DNA from: a virus | DNA: 64,000 bases | Virus record (IMG/VR): IMGVR_UViG_3300042307_002096 | Span: 14,041-78,040 of that record | Strand: one strand, 5' to 3' | Part shown: positions 2,174 to 60,713 of the stretch, piece by piece | Position numbering within the stretch: position 1 is the stretch's first letter | Layout of the letters: each line of letters begins with the position of its first letter | Made by a program: the position numbers and the translations under genes | Notes under the pieces: model-generated | What the model was told of the DNA's origin: nothing | Databases searched by the model: none | The model's input: the letters and a program-made list of their open reading frames with translations, nothing else

Positions 2174-2208
2174 TTGACTGTCCGTTTTATTGAGTGATAA
2201 TATTAGCT

Positions 2209-3213
2209 ATGAAACTAGCAACAATTGAAACAATCAAATCGCTAAAGAAGCATCCAAACGCTGACAAGCTTGAAATTGCTCAGATTCTTGGCTGGCAATC
2301 AGTTGTCCAATCTGGGATACACAAAGAGGGAGATAAAGTCGTCTTTATTGTAATTGACTCGATTGTTCCTCGTTGTCAATGGTCCGAATTTTTAGTCGAT
2401 CAAAAAAATCCAGACAAACCAATTCGTTTGAAGATGATCAAGCTCAGAGGAGAACACTCTGCTGGTATTGTTATTCCGCTTAGTCAGCTTCCAGCTTCTT
2501 TTGAGTTGTATGATACTGGAACAGACGTTACTGAATTACTTGGCGTGCAAAAATATATTAAAGAACTTCCTGCTAGTCTTGGTGGAGAAAATGTTGGAAA
2601 CTTTCCTACACACATTGCTTCCAAAACAGACGAAGATAACGGATTGTCTGATCCTAAACTCGTAGAGGAAGTTATTAAACAACATTTAACCATTACTCAA
2701 AAATTGGATGGATCAAGCTGTACGGTTGTTGTAGAAGACGGAGTCATTACACAAGTTTGTTCTCGTAATTTATCAAAGAAAGAAACTGATAAGAGTGCAT
2801 TCTGGAATGCTGCAAAAAAACTTTCTATTTTGCCTGGATTTACTGGAGTTATCCAAGGAGAGCTTTGTGGACCTGGTATTCAGCAAAATACTCTTCGTCT
2901 TTCTGAGCCGGAACTTTTTGTATTTCAAGTTAAAAAACAAGACGGCAATTATATGAACTACCAAGAGATGAAAGGGTTCTGTAATGTGGAATTAAAATGC
3001 AATGTCGTGCCTCTTATTGTTGAAACGTCATTTGTTGGATGTGATACTGACGTGGCTATCTCAAAGCTTCAAGATCTGGCTGACCAACAATTACTTCCAA
3101 ACAAGAATCCAGCAGAAGGAATTGTAGTTCGCCCTACGGCTTATCCTAGGTCGTACGAGAGCCGGAGGCCACTGGGATTTAAAATTATTAACAGAAATTA
3201 TAAAGATACCTGA
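2209..3213 (+). CDS. ATP-dependent RNA ligase, DRB0094/Rnl2-like
   Basis: N-terminal OB-like HPNADKLE; motif I TQKLDGSS; QGELCGPGIQ; EGIVVR; C-terminal FKIIN. Confidence 0.85.
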   Translation: MKLATIETIKSLKKHPNADKLEIAQILGWQSVVQSGIHKEGDKVVFIVIDSIVPRCQWSEFLVDQKNPDKPIRLKMIKLRGEHSAGIVIPLSQLPASFELYDTGTDVTELLGVQKYIKELPASLGGENVGNFPTHIASKTDEDNGLSDPKLVEEVIKQHLTITQKLDGSSCTVVVEDGVITQVCSRNLSKKETDKSAFWNAAKKLSILPGFTGVIQGELCGPGIQQNTLRLSEPELFVFQVKKQDGNYMNYQEMKGFCNVELKCNVVPLIVETSFVGCDTDVAISKLQDLADQQLLPNKNPAEGIVVRPTAYPRSYESRRPLGFKIINRNYKDT

Positions 3214-3247
3214 TAAATAGGTACGAAACTTTGATCTTTGAAATTAT

Positions 3248-3711
3248 GGGGGTGTACTGGTTTCGACAAATGGTTGAAATTAAAAGTGCATGTAGAGGTT
3301 GATCGATGGCCTCTTTAAAAATCGATTAAAAAAACTAAACGCAGAATCTAATAATTCTGATCTCCTAACTGAAGCTGAATATATCTTCAACAACGCCGAC
3401 GAAATTCTCGCTGGTGCTGAAGAGTTTTCACTAGCAGCCTAAGAGCCTTATACTGGATCCTCTAAAAGTATTTGGAAAATGCAGAGGGGTTGCAGTGAGT
3501 AGGTGTCTAGCAACAGAAAAGCAACAAGACCTATCGGCAATGGATGTACGATAATATCCATAGGTAGACATAAAATACGCGGTTAGTACAACCAAACGAC
3601 CTAGTGTCCGTGTTACCGCAAGGTGATTGAAACGTTGAATGTACTCAAGCATGTGAAGATCTTTTAACGTAAGTTATTTGGACAGGGGTTCGATTCCCCT
3701 CACCTCCACCA
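3248..3711 (+). ncRNA. ssrA: tmRNA
   Basis: 5' GGGGGTGtactggtttcgac; 3' GACAGGGGTTCGATTCCCCTCACCTCCACCA; G3:U70 alanine acceptor pair; tag ORF 3341-3442 starts GCA and ends ...FSLAA-stop. Confidence 0.95.
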
Positions 3712-3737
3712 ATTTCAAATGATTAAATAAAATAAAA

Positions 3738-3828
3738 GGACAGATGGCAGAGTTGGTCTATTGCATCTGACTAGAAATCAGAAGTGCTCGAAAGGGCACC
3801 GTGGGTTCGAATCCTACTCTGTCCGCCA
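3738..3828 (+). tRNA. tRNA-Ser(AGA)
   Basis: GGACAGA/TCTGTCC acceptor, G73, anticodon arm TCTGA-CTAGAAA-TCAGA, long variable arm, TTCGAAT loop, CCA. Confidence 0.9.
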
Positions 3829-3829
3829 C

Positions 3830-3928
3830 TTATTTCTTTTTTTTATTAGCTCCTTTTTGAGAAGATTTGGAACCTGGTTGTTTTGGTTTCTTTTTTTCTT
3901 TTTTTTGTGAGAGATTTCCTTTAGCCAT
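3830..3928 (-). CDS. 32-aa lysine-rich peptide (not in ORF track)
   Basis: Translated by hand: MAKGNLSQKKEKKKPKQPGSKSSQKGANKKKK*; TAAGTA late-promoter-like box upstream. Confidence 0.5.
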   Translation of the reverse strand: MAKGNLSQKKEKKKPKQPGSKSSQKGANKKKK

Positions 3929-3985
3929 AGTAATATTACTTATTTTTTTCTTGACAATTTTTTTAATTCAACTAGTATATAAATC

Positions 3986-4297
3986 ATGCAACCAACCATC
4001 AAAACATTAAGGCAAAGTGGATATAAAGTGCGAGTGATTCATACTCGAAATTATAAGATCGTTAAAAAAATAAGCGGAGATCATTGTGAAATTTTGGCGC
4101 GAGGAGGAAGCACAACAATTCAAATTACAACTCCTGACAAAAAATACGATGCACAAGGAGTTGCTGAATGCTCCGACAAAGACAATTTTAGCAAAAAAAC
4201 CGGAAACTTTATTGCTGTTGGACGAGCACTAAAAGAACTAAAAGAAATGATGGAAAACGATTGCATTTCCAATGAAGATTTTAATAATATTGGTTGA
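3986..4297 (+). CDS. hypothetical phage protein
   Basis: 103 aa; preceded by TTGACA-N16-TAGTAT (3951-3978). Confidence 0.7.
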   Translation: MQPTIKTLRQSGYKVRVIHTRNYKIVKKISGDHCEILARGGSTTIQITTPDKKYDAQGVAECSDKDNFSKKTGNFIAVGRALKELKEMMENDCISNEDFNNIG

Positions 4298-4330
4298 TCT
4301 GTCCACTATTTAATAGTAGAGTATAAAAAC

Positions 4331-4558
4331 GCTCGAGTGGAGTAGAGCAGTTAAAGAAGACCTAGCTTCTATAAAATTCTAGAAAGATTTTTGAAAAATT
4401 AATTTTTACGCCTCCATGATGAAATTGGTAAACATTGTCGACTTAAAATCGACTGCTCTTGAGCTTCCCGGTTCGAATCCGGGTGGAGGTACCATTTTTT
4501 TTGTCAATTATTTATACAAAAAAAAAAAATTAAATTTCGAGTCCCTTCTCGAGTACCA
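4331..4558 (+). pseudogene. split tRNA remnant (Leu-like) flanking the tRNA-Leu(TAA) gene
   Basis: 5' GCTCGAGTGG (4331-4340) pairs with 3' TTCGAGTCCCTT-CTCGAGT-ACCA (4536-4558); the middle is unrelated sequence. Confidence 0.55.
4410..4494 (+). tRNA. tRNA-Leu(TAA)
   Basis: GCCTCCA/TGGAGGT acceptor, GTCGA-CTTAAAA-TCGAC, variable arm, CCA. Confidence 0.92.
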
Positions 4559-4568
4559 ATTTAACAAA

Positions 4569-4655
4569 GGGTTACTATACCGTTAAAGAGACGGTCCGGA
4601 CTGTAAATCCGGCATGCATCGCATTCGCTAGGAGCATTACCTAGGTGGCCCACCA
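4569..4655 (+). tRNA. tRNA-Tyr(GTA), non-canonical D and T loops
   Basis: GGGTTAC/GTGGCCC acceptor, CCGGA-CTGTAAA-TCCGG, T arm CTAGG-AGCATTA-CCTAG, CCA. Confidence 0.8.
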
Positions 4656-4658
4656 TAC

Positions 4659-4732
4659 GCGGGATTAGTTTAATGATAAAACAGGAGTTTTCCAAACTTC
4701 GGTTGGGAGTTTGATTCTCCCATCCCGCACCA
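4659..4732 (+). tRNA. tRNA-Gly(TCC)
   Basis: GCGGGAT/ATCCCGC acceptor, GGAGT-TTTCCAA-ACTTC, CCA. Confidence 0.88.
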
Positions 4733-4752
4733 TTTTACACAAACACACAATT

Positions 4753-4929
4753 ATGACACAAACAGAAAACACAACCGAAGGAAAAGTATATCAACTATGC
4801 CAGGAGCTAGATGATATCAAGAAGCGCAAAAAAGCTTTTGTTAAAGCCTATAACGTCGAAATTAGGCGCATTCAAGACGAAATTCAAGATATTCTTAATC
4901 CGGAAGAAGCTGTAGTAGAACTTCCATAA
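4753..4929 (+). CDS. small coiled-coil hypothetical protein
   Basis: MTQTENTTEGK... ORF between tRNAs; start moved downstream to avoid overlapping tRNA-Gly. Confidence 0.6.
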   Translation: MTQTENTTEGKVYQLCQELDDIKKRKKAFVKAYNVEIRRIQDEIQDILNPEEAVVELP

Positions 4930-4940
4930 ATAAACTAAAT

Positions 4941-5017
4941 AGACTTGTAGCTCAGTTGGTTAGAGCATCTCGTTGATAACGAGAGGGTCGTAGGTTCAAG
5001 TCCTACCAGGTCTACCA
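4941..5017 (+). tRNA. tRNA-Ile(GAT)
   Basis: AGACTTG/CAGGTCT acceptor, TCTCG-TTGATAA-CGAGA, CCA. Confidence 0.92.
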
Positions 5018-5022
5018 AGATT

Positions 5023-5097
5023 GCTCCCATAGTGTAACGGTTAGCACACCACCCTCTCACGGTGGTAGTAGGGGTTCGAATCCCCTTGGGAGTGCCA
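5023..5097 (+). tRNA. tRNA-Glu(CTC)
   Basis: GCTCCCA/TGGGAGT acceptor, CCACC-CTCTCAC-GGTGG, CCA. Confidence 0.92.
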
Positions 5098-5105
5098 TAC
5101 TATAT

Positions 5106-5252
5106 ATGAAGGTACAAAAAACAACTTCTGCCCAAATGCCCTTCAAAGACCACTTTAAAAAAGAACAACAAAAGAAAAAAGAGCAAGAAAAGAAAAAAGC
5201 TGTTGATAAGTCCGACAAAAAGACAGATAGTAATTTTATTGGATGGGCATAA
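5106..5252 (+). CDS. 48-aa lysine-rich peptide (not in ORF track)
   Basis: MKVQKTTSAQMPFKDHFKKEQQKKKEQEKKK...FIGWA* fills the inter-tRNA gap. Confidence 0.45.
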   Translation: MKVQKTTSAQMPFKDHFKKEQQKKKEQEKKKAVDKSDKKTDSNFIGWA

Positions 5253-5264
5253 GTAATTTCATAA

Positions 5265-5351
5265 CCCGGAGTGTGAGAAGTCTGGTATCTCAGTGCGCTC
5301 ATAACGCACCGCCTACGTGCCTCGCAGGTTCAAATCCTGCCTCCGGAACCA
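5265..5351 (+). tRNA. tRNA-Met(CAT), initiator-like (C1:A72 mismatch)
   Basis: CCCGGAG/CTCCGGA acceptor, GTGCG-CTCATAA-CGCAC, 14-nt variable region, CCA. Confidence 0.8.
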
Positions 5352-6090
5352 TTTGACAAAATTTGTTAAATTCTTGTTCAACAAATTTTTTATTAAATTT
5401 TCCTAAATCTTTTATAATGTACGGAACGTAACCGTTTTTTACAATTGCTAGTTGTTTTAAACGGTCTCGATTTTGAACTTGTAATAAAGAATGTCGTTTA
5501 GTTATTTGTTTATAATGCCAAGCACCGTTCCACAAAATTGCAATTTTAAAATCTGGTATTATAACATCAGCGTCCCATCCCTCAAACAAAGGCTCATTGT
5601 GAAGTACGTTTGCAAATTTGGCTTTACAAAGTTCATAAAAATATATTTCATTTTTGCTCCGTTTAATTTGTCTGGATGCGGAAACCAACCCTCCAATTCT
5701 AGCTCCTTCTTTTTTTCTTTGGGTCGAGCAACCTTCAGAACATGTTTTTCTTTTATGCAAAGATTCAATTTTCGTCTTACAAACAACGCACTCATACGTC
5801 TTCAATGTTTTTGCTTTATATTTTTTATATACTTTTTTTGTTGAAAAAGGAGTTGTCTTTGTTCGTTGTTTGTTATTAAAAGTTGCAGCACAAGAACGAG
5901 AGCAAAATTTTGTATTTTTTCCGTTATTTCTTAATTGCTGATAAGACAATATGCTGTTGCAGTTTAAGCAGCTTTTAGGATTAGATTTGTACTCTTCTAC
6001 TCTTTTTTGGTATTGTTCTTTTTGATACTTGCCGGCTCCATTGATATATCTATGGTCCGGTTTGTTGTTTAACTCTAATCTGTTTTTCAT
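5299..6090 (-). CDS. putative free-standing homing endonuclease (Zn-finger repeats plus Vsr/PD-(D/E)xK-like domain)
   Basis: CxxC...FCSRSC and CxxC...TCSEGC repeats, then RSKNE...WDADVII...AILWNGAWHY...RDRLK; antisense within the tRNA cluster. Confidence 0.7.
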   Translation of the reverse strand: MKNRLELNNKPDHRYINGAGKYQKEQYQKRVEEYKSNPKSCLNCNSILSYQQLRNNGKNTKFCSRSCAATFNNKQRTKTTPFSTKKVYKKYKAKTLKTYECVVCKTKIESLHKRKTCSEGCSTQRKKEGARIGGLVSASRQIKRSKNEIYFYELCKAKFANVLHNEPLFEGWDADVIIPDFKIAILWNGAWHYKQITKRHSLLQVQNRDRLKQLAIVKNGYVPYIIKDLGKFNKKFVEQEFNKFCQMVPEAGFEPARHVGGAL

Positions 6091-6229
6091 AATTATATTC
6101 GAGAGGACAGCTAGTTCTTAATCTGTCTAGTTTCTTTAAAGTTCGTACCTTTAAAGATTACTCTCATAAATTATTTATCTTTTTGTGTTGCAATTACAAG
6201 AATGTGTAAATAATTATATTCAATTAAAC

Positions 6230-6336
6230 GCCCTGTTAGCTCAGAGGTAGAGCAACGGTTTTGTGAGTTGTCAGCCTTTTGTCGGACAATTCTCATAAAC
6301 CGTCGGTCATCCGTTCAAATCGGATACGGGGCTCCA
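6230..6336 (+). tRNA. tRNA-Thr(TGT) with 32-nt insertion in the anticodon loop
   Basis: GCCCTGT/ACGGGGC acceptor, canonical D and T arms, ACGGT-TTTGT[6265-6296]AA-ACCGT, CCA. Confidence 0.8.
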
Positions 6337-6342
6337 ATTTAA

Positions 6343-6417
6343 TCCTAGGTAGCTCAGCGGAAGAGTCGTCGGCTGTTAACCGATTGGTCGTAGGTTCGAA
6401 TCCTACCCTAGGAGCCA
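6343..6417 (+). tRNA. tRNA-Asn(GTT)
   Basis: TCCTAGG/CCTAGGA acceptor, loop CTGTTAA, G73, CCA. Confidence 0.92.
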
Positions 6418-6484
6418 CGTCTGTTCGTCAGTTACTCAGTTGACTTGTCCGTCATTCAATAGTATCCTTATCTCATAATAAAAA

Positions 6485-6559
6485 GTCTCGATCGTTCAAC
6501 GGATAGGACAGAGCTCTTCTAAAGCCCTAATGTAGGTTCGATTCCTACTCGAGACACCA
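6485..6559 (+). tRNA. tRNA-Arg(TCT)
   Basis: GTCTCGA/TCGAGAC acceptor, loop CTTCTAA, CCA. Confidence 0.9.
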
Positions 6560-6573
6560 CTTTCTAAACACAC

Positions 6574-7674
6574 ATGACACTACCTACACTATACGCAAGA
6601 ACAAATACAGGAGCTATCCAACAATGGACTATTGAAGCTCATAATAACTCATACCGAACAACTTTTGGTCAAGTTGACGGTAAGCTTCAAACAACTAATT
6701 GGACAGAGTGCTATGAAACTAATACCGGGCGTTCTAATCAAAGAACACCAGAACAGCAAGCACTGTTTGAAGCTAAGGCTCTTTGGAAAAAGAAAAAGGA
6801 CTCAGGATATTTTGAAAGCGTTGATGAAATCGATAAGCCAACTTTTGTTGAGCCGATGTTAGCTAAAAATTACGAAGATTATAAAGACGCCATCAAATTT
6901 CCTGTTTTTAGTCAACCAAAGTTGGATGGCATTAGGTGTATTGTAACAAAGAATGGAATGTTCACGAGAAACGGAAAGTGTATAGAATCTTGTCCTCACA
7001 TCTTCAACGATCTGCAGAAATTTTTTGTTAATCAACCAACACTAGTGTTTGACGGAGAGCTCTACAATCACGATCTTAAGCATGACTTTAATAAAATTGC
7101 ATCTTTGGTAAAAAAGACCAAACCAACAATTGAAGATATTAAAGAATCTTTACAATTAGTTCAATATTGGATATATGATATAGTCGATACAAATAAATCG
7201 TTTAAGGAGCGAATTAAATGGATTATTGACAACATTCAAGGCAGTCATGATTTATCTTTAATTGCTGTTCCAACTGCTTTTCCTTCCGACCAACAACAAT
7301 TGGATAACTTTTACGAAGATTACACTAAACACGGTTTTGAAGGACAGATGATTCGTTTGGATACGAGATATGAAAACAAACGTTCAAAGAATCTTCTTAA
7401 GCGCAAAGAGTTTCAAGATAGAGAATACGTAATTCTTGATATTATTGAAGGGGAAGGAAACAAAGCCGGCATGGCCGGAGCCATGGTATTTCAAAACGAG
7501 CTCGGAATTAATTTTAATAGCAATATTAAGGGGTCTCGAGACTTTTTAAAAGAAATTTGGAAAAACAAAAACCAGTTGATCGGACAACAAGCTACTGTTA
7601 AATTCTTTAACTTAACTCCAGATAATAAAGTTCCAAGATTTCCTTATGTCATGTCTATCAGAAATTATGAATAA
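6574..7674 (+). CDS. ATP-dependent DNA ligase
   Basis: PMLA, QPKLDGIR, FDGELY, EGQMIR, LLKRK motifs; C-terminal OB fold ending PRFP. Confidence 0.92.
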   Translation: MTLPTLYARTNTGAIQQWTIEAHNNSYRTTFGQVDGKLQTTNWTECYETNTGRSNQRTPEQQALFEAKALWKKKKDSGYFESVDEIDKPTFVEPMLAKNYEDYKDAIKFPVFSQPKLDGIRCIVTKNGMFTRNGKCIESCPHIFNDLQKFFVNQPTLVFDGELYNHDLKHDFNKIASLVKKTKPTIEDIKESLQLVQYWIYDIVDTNKSFKERIKWIIDNIQGSHDLSLIAVPTAFPSDQQQLDNFYEDYTKHGFEGQMIRLDTRYENKRSKNLLKRKEFQDREYVILDIIEGEGNKAGMAGAMVFQNELGINFNSNIKGSRDFLKEIWKNKNQLIGQQATVKFFNLTPDNKVPRFPYVMSIRNYE

Positions 7675-7861
7675 ACCTATGTATAAAGTCGAACGAACAA
7701 CTGGGAAAGGTTGGTATGAAGTAATGCTATCTCCGTTTAAAACGCCAGAAGACACAGCAAGTTATATTAGCAAATATAAATGCTACTATCCAAAAGAAGA
7801 TCGGAAATATAAAATTACCAATCTTTTAACTGGCATTACAACGTTTTTTGACGCAAATTAA
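7667..7861 (+). CDS. hypothetical protein
   Basis: ORF overlapping the ligase stop. Confidence 0.55.
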   Translation: MNKPMYKVERTTGKGWYEVMLSPFKTPEDTASYISKYKCYYPKEDRKYKITNLLTGITTFFDAN

Positions 7862-10423: not shown

Positions 10424-11027
10424 GCCTTCTGAAAAAACATTAGAATTACTACTCCGGTATGAAGTTGGTGGAGGTAAGCCATATTATGAAAAATATCTTT
10501 CAAAATTTACTTGGCCTGGCGGAGCATCAGGACCAACAATTGCTATTGGAGTAGATTGTGCTTATTATTCAGAAAGTGAATTATTTAAAATATTTTCATT
10601 TCTTCCAAAAAATCAATTAATTCAAGTTCAAGGAGCTTCGGGAAAATCTGGAGAAAAGGGAAGGTTGTATACGGTTAAATTAAGAGCTGCAGGAATTACT
10701 GTAACTTGGGATAAAGCTCTTGAAATTTTTGAGCAACTTACGTGGCCAAAATTCACAAAATTAGCAGAAAAAACGTTTCCTGGATTGGAAAATTTGCACC
10801 CAGATGCTTACGGAGCCATTATATCTTTGGTGTTTAATAGAGGCACAAGTCTTGTTGGAGAAAAGCGAAAGGAAATGGCTAACATTAAAAATTTGATTTC
10901 TACAAAAAAATACAAACAAATTGCACAAGAGGTTCGTAACATGAAACGTATTTGGGTTGGAAAGGGTTTGGACGGTTTGATAGAAAGAAGAGAATCTGAG
11001 GCAAGATTAATTGAATCAGTCATATGA
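10410..11027 (+). CDS. endolysin (lysozyme-fold muramidase)
   Basis: YEVGGG...WPGGASGPTIAIGVD, AIISLVFNRG, GLIERRESEARL. Confidence 0.85.
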   Translation: MNSSKPSEKTLELLLRYEVGGGKPYYEKYLSKFTWPGGASGPTIAIGVDCAYYSESELFKIFSFLPKNQLIQVQGASGKSGEKGRLYTVKLRAAGITVTWDKALEIFEQLTWPKFTKLAEKTFPGLENLHPDAYGAIISLVFNRGTSLVGEKRKEMANIKNLISTKKYKQIAQEVRNMKRIWVGKGLDGLIERRESEARLIESVI

Positions 11028-11941
11028 ATAAAACGCCTAAAAAAAAGTTGACTTCGTGCGAAAATGAAGAAATTTTAAAAAGCATCGAAACTAGACAAAA
11101 TTCTTTGAATAGCTTGTCTAAATATTTGTCAGAATTAGAAAGTCAGCTTGCTTTGGTGTTTGCTTCGTCACCTGATATAATCGTGTTCTTAGATCAAGAT
11201 TCTACGATATTAAAAATAAGTGATGCAGCTTTTACTATATTGGGTTATACACGATCAGATTTAGTTGGTAGGCCAATATGGGATTTTATTGATTCAGAAG
11301 ATGCTATAGAAACTCGTAAAAAATTTTTAGAATTAAGAGAAAAAAAAGTAATGTACTTTGATGGGCAAAAAGCACTCGTCAATCATTGGATATCTAAAAG
11401 CGGAAACAAAGTAAAGTTAGTATGGAGATTTTCTTTGTGTGACGAGAGAGAAAATCAAACAATTGGTATTGCATCTGACATTACTCAGTTTAGTCCAAAT
11501 AATGCTTATAGCTATAAATTGCTAGAAAAAGCAGTAGAGTCTTCAACAGACGGAATTGTGATTACAGATGCACAACACCCGGACAATGTAATGGTGTATG
11601 TTAATAGCGCTTTTGAGAAAATTACGGGATATACGAGTAACGAATTAATAGGCAACAACTGCAGAATGCTGCAGACGGACGACACAAAAAGTTCCAGAGC
11701 ACTTAAAACTCTGAGATCTTGTATTAAATCCGGAAAAAATTGCGACGTATTGCTGCAAAATAAAAGAAAAAACGGAGAAGTATTTTATTCTAGATTAGCA
11801 ATATCGGCTGTTATTGAACACGGAGTAGTTGTTAACTTTATTGGAGTAGTCAGGGATATAACAGATAAAATTGACGTAAAATATGAGTGGTCTCCAAACG
11901 CAGAAAGCGGATTTATACATTTAAGCAATCGCCATGAATAA
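11024..11941 (+). CDS. PAS + LOV-type PAS sensor protein without effector domain
   Basis: PAS1 (SPDII...ILGYTRSDLVG...SDIT); PAS2 DGIVITDAQHPDNVMVYVNSAFEKITGY...GNNCRMLQ...NKRKNGE...RDIT matches the LOV GxNCRFLQ signature. Confidence 0.88.
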   Translation: MNKTPKKKLTSCENEEILKSIETRQNSLNSLSKYLSELESQLALVFASSPDIIVFLDQDSTILKISDAAFTILGYTRSDLVGRPIWDFIDSEDAIETRKKFLELREKKVMYFDGQKALVNHWISKSGNKVKLVWRFSLCDERENQTIGIASDITQFSPNNAYSYKLLEKAVESSTDGIVITDAQHPDNVMVYVNSAFEKITGYTSNELIGNNCRMLQTDDTKSSRALKTLRSCIKSGKNCDVLLQNKRKNGEVFYSRLAISAVIEHGVVVNFIGVVRDITDKIDVKYEWSPNAESGFIHLSNRHE

Positions 11942-21974: not shown

Positions 21975-22393
21975 GTAGTAGGTTTTAACTTTAACCTCAA
22001 AGCAAAGTCATTAAACTTCCTTTGAGGTTTTTGTCGTTTAAGGCTGTTTTCAGCAGCGCTTTCAAGGTCTGGAGAATTAAGATCAAACTTACCACAATAT
22101 GGTATTGGAAGCTGGCTCATCATTCCGTCAAAATAACTATCTACAAAGTTGCCAATCCTTTTTGTAATAGCTTTTTTAGAAATACACAACACTTTTGGAA
22201 ACGGACTTTGGGTTGTTTTATAAGTGGATTCAATACTCTTAAAACAAAATCCTAGAATAATACGTCTTCCATCTGCACTGTTAAGTTGAATGTTATTTTT
22301 ACGAGCAAAATCAGTAGCAAATCTCAATCCTTGTTCAAAAGAAGGATAAATATCAATTACACAAATTCTGGATTTTGGAAATGTTTTGATCAT
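21971..22393 (-). CDS. hypothetical protein
   Basis: Coupled to the adjacent minus-strand gene. Confidence 0.55.
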   Translation of the reverse strand: MIKTFPKSRICVIDIYPSFEQGLRFATDFARKNNIQLNSADGRRIILGFCFKSIESTYKTTQSPFPKVLCISKKAITKRIGNFVDSYFDGMMSQLPIPYCGKFDLNSPDLESAAENSLKRQKPQRKFNDFALRLKLKPTT

Positions 22394-22809
22394 AGCTTAA
22401 AGTTTTTAGGTGGCTTACCAATACGCACGTTTAATATACCATTATAGAAATGCTCACTTAATATTACGTCTTGTTCAATTTGACGCTTTATTTCTTTATA
22501 TCCCAATTCCCATTTAGATCCACCCCACTCTAAAATAGTAAATGTAAATTTGTCTTTGCCATACTTAGCAATATCTTCGTTTAGCTCTTTTGACGAGCCA
22601 GTATAAGTCTTCCAATCGCTTTCCTTATGGTCAATACGGTTTCTTGTCTTTCCTTTCAATGGTTTTCTTTTAACTCGAGAAATGCATTGTTTTTTGCCAA
22701 TGTATTTTTTGGGTTCCGTCAACGCGTTGTTGCTGATTTCGTAAATGAAACCAAAAGCCTCTTGATTATAGTTCAATCCTTCAGCAAGTTGCCAGTGTCC
22801 TAAATCCAT
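22390..22809 (-). CDS. GIY-YIG endonuclease (T4 endonuclease II/DenA-like)
   Basis: GFIY...KYIGKK, ESDWKTYTGSS, E...FYN. Confidence 0.8.
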   Translation of the reverse strand: MDLGHWQLAEGLNYNQEAFGFIYEISNNALTEPKKYIGKKQCISRVKRKPLKGKTRNRIDHKESDWKTYTGSSKELNEDIAKYGKDKFTFTILEWGGSKWELGYKEIKRQIEQDVILSEHFYNGILNVRIGKPPKNFKL

Positions 22810-59624: not shown

Positions 59625-60713
59625 ATGAAGGTTAGTCTTCCTACAAAAGAGGAATTTTGCGTTAGAGATTGCGTTATTGCAAATACCGCTTGCAAATTAG
59701 TTTTCCCTTTTAAAATTGACGTCAAATGGAACGAGCAAAATAAAATATTTCGCTCATCTATTTGGACAAATGACGGAGAGCTTGTCAGCGGATCATTTAA
59801 AAAATTTACAAATCTTGGTGAACAACCAGAATTTGAACCGCTTGATATCGACTCCGACATTGAATTTATCCACAAGTTAGATGGATCAACTCTGATTGTT
59901 TCAAAGTTTAAAAGAGAGCTAATTGTTAGAACAAGAGGAACACACGATGCAACTATTTTGGATAATGGCGACGAGATTCCTTTTTTAAAACAAAAATATC
60001 CTTTGGTTTTTGATAATAGCCTTTTGAATAGCGAGCAATATTCAATTGTTTGCGAATGGTATTCACCAAGAAATGTTATAGTTGAAAGAGAAGCAGAAGA
60101 ACCAACTCTTTGGCTTACTGGAGTAATAAAGCATGAAGACTATTCTTATCTACCTCAAAAACAATTAGATAGTCTTGCCTCGGAATGGAAATTAGAAAGA
60201 CCACTTCGATATCACTTTAATTCACTATCCTCAATGATTGAATCTGTCAATCAATGGAAGAAAGGAGAAGGGATTGTCATTTATGGCAATAACGGACAGG
60301 TACTCAAGAAAACCAAATCTGATCGTTATCTTCTTCTGCACAAGATTAAATCACAATTAAATTCTACTAAAAACCTTATTGAATTTTATATAGAAAAAGA
60401 AATGCCCTCCGCAGAAGATTTTTATAAAATAATTGAAACTGATTTTGATTATGAAATTGCTTTTCAATTAAAAGATGAGATTAAAAAAATTTGTGAAGCG
60501 GGGGAAAAATCAAAAAAATATATTGATTATGTTCTAGAAGTAGTGCATGATATCAGAAAAGTGGAAACCAGAAAAGAACAAGCACTAATGATTAAAGGAA
60601 ATTTTAAAGAAAATTCCTCATTTGTATTTTCTGTTTTAGATGGTAAAATAATAACAAAAGAACAGTGGGCAAAACTTATAAATCAAAATTATGAAAGCCA
60701 AAGAACTAATTGA
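59625..60713 (+). CDS. RNA ligase (T4 Rnl1-like)
   Basis: KKFTNLGE, motif I KLDGS, EGIVI, KKTKSDRY. Confidence 0.75.
   Translation: MKVSLPTKEEFCVRDCVIANTACKLVFPFKIDVKWNEQNKIFRSSIWTNDGELVSGSFKKFTNLGEQPEFEPLDIDSDIEFIHKLDGSTLIVSKFKRELIVRTRGTHDATILDNGDEIPFLKQKYPLVFDNSLLNSEQYSIVCEWYSPRNVIVEREAEEPTLWLTGVIKHEDYSYLPQKQLDSLASEWKLERPLRYHFNSLSSMIESVNQWKKGEGIVIYGNNGQVLKKTKSDRYLLLHKIKSQLNSTKNLIEFYIEKEMPSAEDFYKIIETDFDYEIAFQLKDEIKKICEAGEKSKKYIDYVLEVVHDIRKVETRKEQALMIKGNFKENSSFVFSVLDGKIITKEQWAKLINQNYESQRTN

Follow-up and report, generated by a model that had tools for sequence, protein, structure and literature searches.

Introduction

How could a phage obtain a working tRNA from a gene whose anticodon loop is broken by a hairpin of only 32 nt? 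This question is raised by the window, a 64,000-nt stretch of an IMG/VR virus record, in which a tRNA gene at 6230-6336 is interrupted directly within its anticodon. To our knowledge, bacterial and phage tRNA introns are taught as self-splicing group I introns, and protein-only tRNA splicing is taught as a hallmark of archaea and eukaryotes. A group I intron has a P3-P9 core, is usually longer than 200 nt, ends in a 3'-terminal G and carries a U.G pair at the 5' splice site. The archaeal and eukaryal tRNA intron is marked by a bulge-helix-bulge, in which two 3-nt bulges are separated by 4 bp. Group I introns have been described in the anticodon loops of bacterial and phage tRNAs (PMC3984707). 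In the Lak megaphages, "enigmatic" introns occur in tRNA genes, including tRNA-Thr(TGT), and the mechanism of their removal was not reported (Devoto et al., 2019; PMC6784885).

Genomic context of the interrupted gene

The window is part of a 78-kb contig (G000), for which CheckV estimates a completeness of 37%. It encodes a family B DNA polymerase, a T4-type terminase, a tail sheath protein and gp32, together with a UvsX-like RecA, a gp41-like helicase and a SegE-like nuclease, and all metagenomes carrying the sequence are from lakes or freshwater, with no RNA run among them. By gene content and sample origin, the source is a T4-like myovirus of lake water. Its host is taken to be bacterial because the phage has a tmRNA, a LysM protein and T4-like genes. 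The interrupted gene stands in an array of tRNA genes that is bordered by an RNA ligase gene on one side and an ATP-dependent DNA ligase gene on the other (Table 1).

Table 1. Features of the window that bear on the interrupted tRNA gene.
Feature	Position	Strand	Remarks
NgrRnl-like (Rnl5-type) ATP-dependent RNA ligase	2194..3213	+	PF21189 and PF09414: N-terminal OB domain and nucleotidyltransferase
tmRNA and nine or ten tRNA genes	3248-6559		array bordered by the two ligase genes
tRNA(CAU), 87 nt, long variable arm	5265..5351	+	in place of the 72-nt tRNA-Met(CAU) of G005
Vsr-like (PD-(D/E)xK) endonuclease (predicted), N-terminal Cys-rich modules	5299..6090	-	phrog_1271 'HNH endonuclease', E = 1.6e-8
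tRNA-Thr(UGU), 5' exon	6230..6263	+	acceptor 5' strand, D arm, anticodon stem 5' strand, U32 U33 U34 G35
Hairpin insert (putative mini-intron), 32 nt	6264..6295	+	homologues in L013, L064, L066, L067, L117
tRNA-Thr(UGU), 3' exon	6296..6336	+	U36, A37 A38, anticodon stem 3' strand, variable loop, T arm
End of the 3' exon	within 6296..6336	+	acceptor 3' strand, U73, encoded CCA
ATP-dependent DNA ligase	6574-7674
T4 Rnl1-type RNA ligase (anticodon-loop repair ligase family)	59625..60713	+	PF09511, E = 1.3e-14

Identity of the interrupted tRNA-Thr gene

An earlier note on this DNA had described the locus as a tRNA whose anticodon loop contains a 32-nt hairpin, and the sequence bears this out: Rfam RF00005 matches 6230-6333 with 52.3 bits (gathering score 29) and about 35 extra bases in the anticodon loop. 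ARAGORN skipped the gene in its default mode and found it in intron mode with a misnamed anticodon; standard bacterial tRNA finders thus miss hairpin-interrupted genes. The 107-nt RNA is predicted to fold as a cloverleaf in which the anticodon arm is a single long helix (-40.3 kcal/mol, z = -4.0), and none of 200 shuffled sequences was equally stable. The interrupted gene recurs with 0 differences on contigs of three further metagenome runs from lake water (X2, X3 and X4), which shows that the gene is real DNA and rules out an assembly artefact. Across four DNA runs, no contig lacking the insert at this locus was seen.

The proposed identity as tRNA-Thr(UGU) was confirmed by comparison with uninterrupted genes. 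An exact-pattern scan of IMG/VR retrieved about 25 near-identical phage tRNA genes that have the D arm, the anticodon stem (ACGGT/ACCGT) and the variable loop in common with the window gene, and their loop, TTTGTAA, is that of tRNA-Thr(UGU). In the window gene, the 7-nt loop UUUGUAA with the anticodon UGU appears only after conceptual removal of 6264-6295. The Thr-type acceptor pairs G1:C72 and C2:G71 are present, and every copy starts with GCC and ends with GGC. The two closest relatives by DNA ligase (G004 and G005, 77-79% identity) have the order Met-Thr(UGU)-Asn-Arg-ligase, and the window has the interrupted gene followed by Asn-Arg-ligase, which places it in the syntenic Thr slot. In a blastn comparison with G005, the segments 6237-6264 and 6296-7675 flank one T of the uninterrupted tRNA-Thr of that phage, which identifies the window gene as the orthologue of tRNA-Thr(UGU). 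A second tRNA-Thr gene was found neither in the 78-kb record nor in the interrupted records G001 and G002, and the commonest Thr codon is ACA.

A family of hairpin inserts with a fixed junction

Pattern scans that allowed a long loop showed five more phage tRNA-Thr genes to be interrupted at this site by a homologous insert of 29-32 nt. These are L013 (on the same contig as L063), L064, L066, L067 and L117/L118, the last with a different anticodon stem (GCGGT/ACCGC). All inserts have an 8-bp core in common, GAGUUGUC/GACARUUC, which in two of them reads UAGUUKUC/GACGAUUA. The sequence of this core helix is conserved beyond pairing alone, and the loop is variable in both sequence and length. L065 was rejected as a member of the family: it copies only part of the anticodon arm, carries another insert, of 20 nt, and is located downstream of an intact tRNA-Thr. 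Scans of IMG/VR and of one genome per GTDB species revealed no further tRNA context for the insert motif, and the matches outside the family were coding or repeat sequence (e.g., L185). Within these collections, the insert family looks rare and confined to tRNA-Thr.

The junction is ambiguous by one base in five copies, in which a U stands on both sides. The placement at 6265-6296 given in the earlier note yields the same product as 6264-6295 for this reason, and the exact position was settled by a homologue. In L117 an A follows UUUG, and the only way to restore UGU is to join UUUG to UAA. This puts the insert between G35 and U36, at 6264-6295, and identifies the bulged U of the precursor as U36 proper. 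All six interrupted genes allow TTTG+TAA to be restored, with U36, A37 and A38 invariant. A different excision, which would have left a CAT loop, had also been considered in the earlier note; it has to be abandoned, as the last seven loop bases differ among the homologues (CTCATAA, CACTTAA, CACGTAA, AACGTAA and CTTATAA).

Predicted structure and constraint on the RNA

The core helix of the window insert is formed by 6265-6272 with 6285-6292, beyond which there are an A.G apposition, a G:C pair and the variable loop, and 6294-6295 pair with G35 and U34. The same minimum-energy fold was obtained for all six anticodon arms: 7 bp, which are the anticodon stem plus 32:38 and 33:37, then the bulged U36, about 11 stacked pairs and the loop. 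Folded alone, the window arm has z = -4.5, and the six arms range from -4.5 to -5.8.

Covariation of the insert in related phages had been put forward as a check. The hairpin is conserved, 98% of the cells are paired in a five-sequence alignment, and the tRNA bodies are fully paired in all copies. With one exception, the changes in the helix preserve pairing (G:C to U:A once, U:A to U.G three times at two positions), and one G.U in the insert helix is kept in all copies. Since G.U pairs exist only on the RNA sense strand, the constraint acts on the RNA and not on a DNA palindrome. Strong covariation among the interrupted genes was also detected in the acceptor stem (4/7 pairs) and the T stem (5/5 pairs), which indicates sound tRNA bodies, and part of this divergence may predate the insertion if the spread was recent. 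Judged from its sequence and predicted fold, the insert is unable to splice itself and is kept by selection at the RNA level.

The uninterrupted alleles and L117 place one junction on each strand of the helix. The two are offset by 2 bp such that a 3' overhang would result, and about 11 stacked pairs would separate the cut from the loop. Bacterial RNase III leaves 2-nt 3' overhangs with 5'-phosphate and 3'-hydroxyl ends and acts on a helix of minimum 11 bp (PMC1540722). The predicted fold has the geometry of such a substrate, that is, a helix of about two turns, at least 11 bp to the loop and the 2-bp offset. The hairpin substrates T7 R1.1 and minimal uR1.1 (Pertzev and Nicholson, 2006; PMC1540722) resemble it as looped helices of about 20 bp with about 11 pairs between cut and loop and a 2-bp offset, the window cuts being inferred, and differ from it in that a bulged base flanks one inferred cut of the window insert. 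In the window copy, the bulged U is beside one scissile bond and a U.U opposition is beside the other, which could hinder cutting. No match to the RNase III domain (PF00636) was found in the 78-kb record (37% complete); RNase III, if it is the cutter, would therefore be that of the host.

Patchy distribution of the insert

Outside the insert, the interrupted genes are nearer to uninterrupted genes than to one another. The tRNA body of L067 is 98.5% identical to the uninterrupted L022, that of L013 is 93.8% identical to L016, that of the window 90.8% to L026 and that of L066 82.5% to L027. Among themselves, the interrupted bodies reach only 74-81% identity, against 82-98% with uninterrupted ones. 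The insert has thus moved between alleles or has been precisely lost many times. It is apparently mobile, and its distribution is like that of mobile introns. The sample behind this comparison consists of six sequences with four or five tRNA bodies, from three independent phage lineages with usable flanks; the comparison records are mostly fragments (8-66% complete), and G005 is complete (217 kb, terminal repeats).

RNA ligases in the interrupted records

Two RNA ligases are encoded in the window. The NgrRnl-like enzyme matches the Naegleria RNA ligase (PDB 5cot) with E = 2.9e-33, and the Rnl1-type enzyme matches the T4 Rnl1 structures 2c5u and 5tt6 with E about 5e-5. The Rnl1 homologue of G002 and G003 is 46% identical and is clustered with a P-loop kinase and an NgrRnl-like ligase; in the 78-kb record (G000, 37% complete), no AAA_33 kinase was found. 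G005 retains only a C-terminal remnant of Rnl1, with a stop codon. The NgrRnl-like ligase is present in G001, G002 and G003 and absent from the complete G005.

The interrupted records were compared with 24 records that carry an uninterrupted tRNA-Thr of the sequence type of the window. The NgrRnl-like ligase is present in all four interrupted records versus 2 of the 24, and Rnl1 occurs in 5 of the 24, including G015, a sister of G001. The ligases are at most permissive for the insert and have another job, RNA repair, because they are also found in phages without it. Conversely, among the records compared, the insert is found only on an RNA-ligase background. The idea that nucleases and phage ligases remove the insert, already present in the earlier note, thereby gains circumstantial support on the ligase side: the insert is restricted to records with the NgrRnl-like ligase, Rnl1 is also present in the window and in G002/G003, and both ligases are lost from the complete uninterrupted relative.

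An ORF-by-ORF comparison (about 120 ORFs) showed that only the NgrRnl-like ligase and the Vsr-like nuclease are present in G001 and G002 and absent from G005. Two sister contrasts agree with these counts. The window has the insert, the nuclease and the ligases, and G005 has none of them; G001 has the insert and the nuclease, G015 has neither, and the ligases are present in both.

A Vsr-like endonuclease beside the tRNA gene

The earlier note mentioned neither the neighbouring endonuclease gene nor the patchy, mobile-like distribution of the insert. The 3' end of the endonuclease gene overlaps the tRNA(CAU) gene, and the two form one cassette. Relative to G005, the DNA from this tRNA(CAU), at 5265, through the nuclease gene is novel, followed by 28 conserved exon bases and then the insert. 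The protein has more than 800 homologues, and the family lacks a Pfam domain. Its AlphaFold model (pLDDT 83.5) was matched by Foldseek to Vsr (1vsr, probability 1.00, TM 0.57 on the target) and to I-Bth0305I (3r3p, probability 0.90, TM 0.58), with E-values of only about 6e-3 to 0.1, and conserved acidic and His residues are seen in the family alignment. On the basis of this model, the protein is probably a free-standing homing endonuclease.

The nuclease gene is present in 4/4 interrupted records versus 0/24 uninterrupted ones. From the insert it is 140 nt away in the window, measured from its start, 0.33 kb in G002 and 0.4-1.2 kb in G001, where it occurs in duplicated or degenerate copies; around L064, which has the insert, no nuclease gene was found within 1-1.5 kb. 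All phages that bear the nuclease with an intact tRNA-Thr(UGU) have other anticodon-stem sequences. A quick IQ-TREE phylogeny places the three nucleases from interrupted phages within one group of 10 rows, which has weak support and is not a clade exclusive to them.

At the level of the family, a tRNA(CAU/UAU) abuts the 3' end of the nuclease ORF in 35 of 60 non-redundant loci, and 13 of 48 adjacent tRNAs are 83-100 nt long. By these neighbourhoods, and taken over the whole family, the usual partner of the nuclease is a tRNA(CAU) gene and not tRNA-Thr. In neighbouring loci, ARAGORN also predicted many inserts of group I size.

A model for excision, sealing and spread

The reading that we favour, with a probability of about 0.4, is that the insert is a mobile, protein-dependent mini-intron that would be cut out by RNase III, sealed by a phage ligase and spread together with an endonuclease. 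From the insert family, its junction and fold, the constraint on the RNA, the patchy distribution and the gene associations, we infer the following steps. In the precursor, the anticodon stem and the insert would together form a helix of about 20 bp. This helix would be cut after G35 and before U36 by a double-strand-specific nuclease, most likely the RNase III of the host, and a hairpin with a 2-nt 3' overhang would be released; RNase III is proposed because the 2-bp offset, the 2-nt 3' overhang and the roughly 11 pairs are its marks. The exon ends, a 3'-hydroxyl and a 5'-phosphate, would be kept together by the tRNA body. Such ends are direct substrates of Rnl1- and Naegleria-type ATP-dependent ligases, and the natural substrate of Rnl1 is a tRNA broken in the anticodon loop. 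The same use of 5'-phosphate and 3'-hydroxyl ends is described for phage ATP-grasp ligases (PMC7824862). An ATP-dependent RNA ligase of the phage, Rnl1-type and/or NgrRnl-like, could then reseal the 7-nt loop UUUGUAA and give the mature 75-nt tRNA-Thr. As DNA, the insert probably interrupts the sequence that the neighbouring endonuclease targets and so would shield the gene of the phage itself, and the insert and the endonuclease gene would be copied together into uninterrupted alleles of co-infecting phages (collaborative homing).

Alternative explanations

The tight link between insert and nuclease could also mean that the insert is an unspliced selfish scar, which guards the DNA from the homing endonuclease and kills a dispensable tRNA, so that the gene is in effect a pseudogene. 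The contiguity of nuclease cassette, 5' exon and insert as one block relative to G005 agrees with this, and phage tRNAs are often dispensable. Nevertheless, we regard a scar as unlikely. A DNA spacer needs neither pair-preserving helix changes, which include the RNA-only G.U, nor a drifting loop beside them, and it would not explain why the UGU loop can always be rebuilt around an invariant U36, A37 and A38, why the tRNA bodies are perfectly paired in all copies or why the insert occurs only in ligase-bearing phages. Moreover, the interrupted gene is the sole tRNA-Thr and reads the commonest Thr codon of the phage. The conserved tRNA body, the masked anticodon and the sequence-level conservation of the insert helix would equally suit an RNA that acts unspliced, its anticodon arm long and closed. 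Such an RNA might, for instance, divert a host anticodon nuclease or another tRNA-binding defence protein as a decoy, and the RNA-repair gene set of the phage implies a conflict over tRNAs. Yet a decoy leaves unexplained the seven reconstitutable loop bases, the RNase III register of the junctions, the ordinary tRNA-Thr in the same slot of the relatives and the lack of any other tRNA-Thr, and we consider it decidedly improbable.

Two further readings accept removal of the insert and assign it to another agent. The Vsr-like protein itself might be the endoribonuclease that excises the hairpin and, with the ligases, make up a self-contained splicing system of the phage. Nuclease and ligase are the only two genes that follow the phyletic pattern of the insert, the nuclease does so without exception in the 4 and 24 records compared, its fold matches include RAP-domain mitoribosome proteins and FASTKD4, which are RNA-binding relatives of Vsr, and conservation of the helix at the sequence level is expected for a sequence-specific protein. 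Against this, the best fold matches, Vsr and I-Bth0305I, are DNA enzymes, nearly all of the more than 800 family members lie in phage tRNA arrays without a hairpin-interrupted tRNA-Thr, the Cys-rich N-terminal modules and the degenerate copies of G001 are typical of homing endonuclease genes, and L064 has no nuclease copy nearby; this role for the protein thus appears quite unlikely. An intron of the archaeal and eukaryal bulge-helix-bulge type, to which the earlier note had likened the insert, or a degenerate group I intron is extremely improbable, even though the position in the anticodon loop and the pairing with the anticodon are found in many such introns. The fold has a single 1-nt bulge in otherwise continuous pairing instead of a 3-4-3 bulge-helix-bulge, the junction is at 35/36 and not at 37/38, the host is bacterial, and EndA (PF01974) has no match in the 78-kb record (37% complete), so that the likeness does not hold. 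The exclusion of a group I intron, on the other hand, stands: the insert has 32 nt and the wrong form, it ends in A (T in the other register) and not in a terminal G, and no Rfam intron or ribozyme matched at E <= 1 in 3000-7500.

Two other candidates were rejected. A DNA hairpin element of the IS200/REP type does not fit, as terminal repeats and a target duplication are lacking and the pairing depends on G.U; an internal terminator does not fit, as no U run follows the hairpin.

Relation to known systems

The mini-intron proposed here has several partial counterparts. Like the window insert, the introns of the Lak megaphages are non-group-I inserts in phage tRNAs, have alleles with and without the insert and are near-identical across samples. 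The RNase III register and the links to RNA ligase and endonuclease that we describe for the window insert are unreported in the Lak paper (PMC6784885). Furthermore, the Lak tRNA-Thr insert was described as tRNA-shaped, whereas the family of the window is a plain hairpin of 29-32 nt at 35/36.

On the side of cutting, intervening sequences of bacterial 23S rRNA are excised by RNase III. The rRNA pieces stay unjoined, whereas a tRNA that is cut in its anticodon has to be resealed. On the side of sealing, T4 uses Pnkp and Rnl1 to repair tRNA after attack by an anticodon nuclease. The resemblance is that of a T4-like phage with an Rnl1-type ligase, and in G002 the ligases are clustered with a P-loop kinase. 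In T4, however, the break is host damage in a host tRNA, whereas in the window a phage tRNA would be cut twice, in a programmed way, to remove 32 nt. An overview of tRNA repair in T4 is available (PMC7824862).

As to spread, collaborative homing has been described for F-CphI with the psbA intron of cyanophage S-PM2 and for T4 mobE with I-TevIII (PMC6083498, PMC2790892, PMC2988022). As in these pairs, a free-standing nuclease gene lies 0.14-1.2 kb from a non-coding insert, the two are jointly present or absent between sister phages, and the site of insertion is a highly conserved sequence. In contrast to these pairs, the partner in the window is not a self-splicing group I intron and its nuclease is predicted from the fold. 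SegB in the tRNA cluster of T4 can likewise be likened to the free-standing nuclease of the window. The group I introns of tRNAs are similar in their anticodon-loop site, their mobility and their association with homing endonucleases, but they are ribozymes of at least 200 nt with a terminal G, compared with 32 nt here.

In open-access papers and bioRxiv, no description was found of hairpin introns in phage tRNAs, of such introns with an RNase III register or of tRNA splicing by RNase III and a ligase in bacteria or phages. What appears to be new here, from comparison of the sequences, is the 35|36 junction fixed by a homologue, the sister-phage contrasts that link the insert to the endonuclease, and the background restricted to RNA-ligase phages.

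Implications

Tentatively, and as a statement we would still bet against, phages may possess a protein-dependent tRNA splicing of their own, with mobile, RNase III-shaped hairpin introns of 25-35 nt that would be resealed by Rnl1/Rnl5 ligases and spread by homing. Such an enzyme-driven cutting and rejoining in the bacterial world is directly testable with two or three proteins and one transcript. If the model is true, tRNA splicing would come in three kinds, the two others being group I self-splicing and the EndA/ligase route. The RNA ligases of phages would then gain a housekeeping role beside repair, and the presence of several ligases in T4-like phages would be explained. It would also mean that a homing endonuclease can use a non-catalytic insert as an immunity device.

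RNA Repair Genes in Related Phages

In G002, a related phage whose tRNA-Thr is also interrupted, an RNA-repair gene cluster was found. It codes for two ligases, one of the Rnl1 type and one NgrRnl-like, and for an AAA_33 P-loop kinase, and it also contains three small unknown ORFs. In G005, the closest complete relative, with an uninterrupted tRNA-Thr, the gene for the Rnl1-type ligase is reduced to its C-terminal third, which carries an in-frame TGA. The Rnl1-type ligase thus looks to have been recently lost from this insert-free phage.

Table. Locations of the features described in this part.
Feature	Location	Strand	Remark
RNA-repair gene cluster	L194:8295-11913 (= G002:27295-30913)	one strand throughout	related phage with interrupted tRNA-Thr
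Rnl1-type ligase gene remnant	G005:76966-77292 (within L204/L205)		syntenic place
tmRNA, full	window 3248-3711		115.9 bits; tag ends ...EEFSLAA
tRNA-Ser, unusual anticodon AGA (A34)	window 3738-3828		
Double-PAS-domain protein	window 11024-11941	+	
SegE-like GIY-YIG endonuclease gene	window 22390-22809	-	PF19835, E 3.8e-26
tRNA(CAU), long variable arm	window 5265-5351	+	at 3′ end of Vsr-like endonuclease gene
tRNA(CAU), long variable arm	L013:10808-10891	-	at 3′ end of Vsr-like endonuclease gene
tRNA(CAU), long variable arm	L117:3300-3392	-	at 3′ end of Vsr-like endonuclease gene
tRNA(CAU), long variable arm	L119:3053-3135		at 3′ end of Vsr-like endonuclease gene

Further Inserts, Observed and Predicted, in Phage tRNA Genes

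Short contigs from two other lake metagenomes (runs X4 and X5) cover window 6237-6311 of the interrupted gene, and they differ from the window copy by eight differences and three small deletions in the hairpin loop; therefore, further alleles of the insert circulate in these lakes. At the phage locus L065, a stray segment (L065:219-263) repeats the D-stem and anticodon arm but has neither acceptor nor T arm. It follows an intact tRNA-Thr(UGU) at a distance of approximately 140 nt, carries a different insert of 20 nt, and may be a recombination relic. In phage arrays with the Vsr-like nuclease family, ARAGORN in intron mode predicted many further interrupted tRNAs (L109:5122-5235, L106, L123, L127, L136, L141, L154, L166, L167 and L183). 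Most of these predicted inserts are 200-550 nt long, which is the size of group I introns, and a few are short, among them a 36-nt hairpin predicted in L109 within a gene that resembles tRNA-Lys(CUU).

Other Genes of the Window

The window also encodes a tmRNA, and tmRNAs with related tags are present in the relatives. Its SegE-like GIY-YIG endonuclease gene also occurs in G005. The product with two PAS domains is unusual in phage.

A Long-Armed tRNA at the Vsr-Like Endonuclease Gene

A tRNA of 83-100 nt, with CAU as its anticodon and with a long variable arm, overlaps or abuts the Vsr-like endonuclease gene at its 3′ end. Across the non-redundant loci of this nuclease family, a tRNA(CAU/UAU) is positioned directly at the ORF end in 35 of 60, and the same slot in G005 holds an ordinary tRNA-Met(CAU) of 72 nt. 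The long variable arm may be a harmless insertion, shielding the gene from the Vsr-like nuclease.
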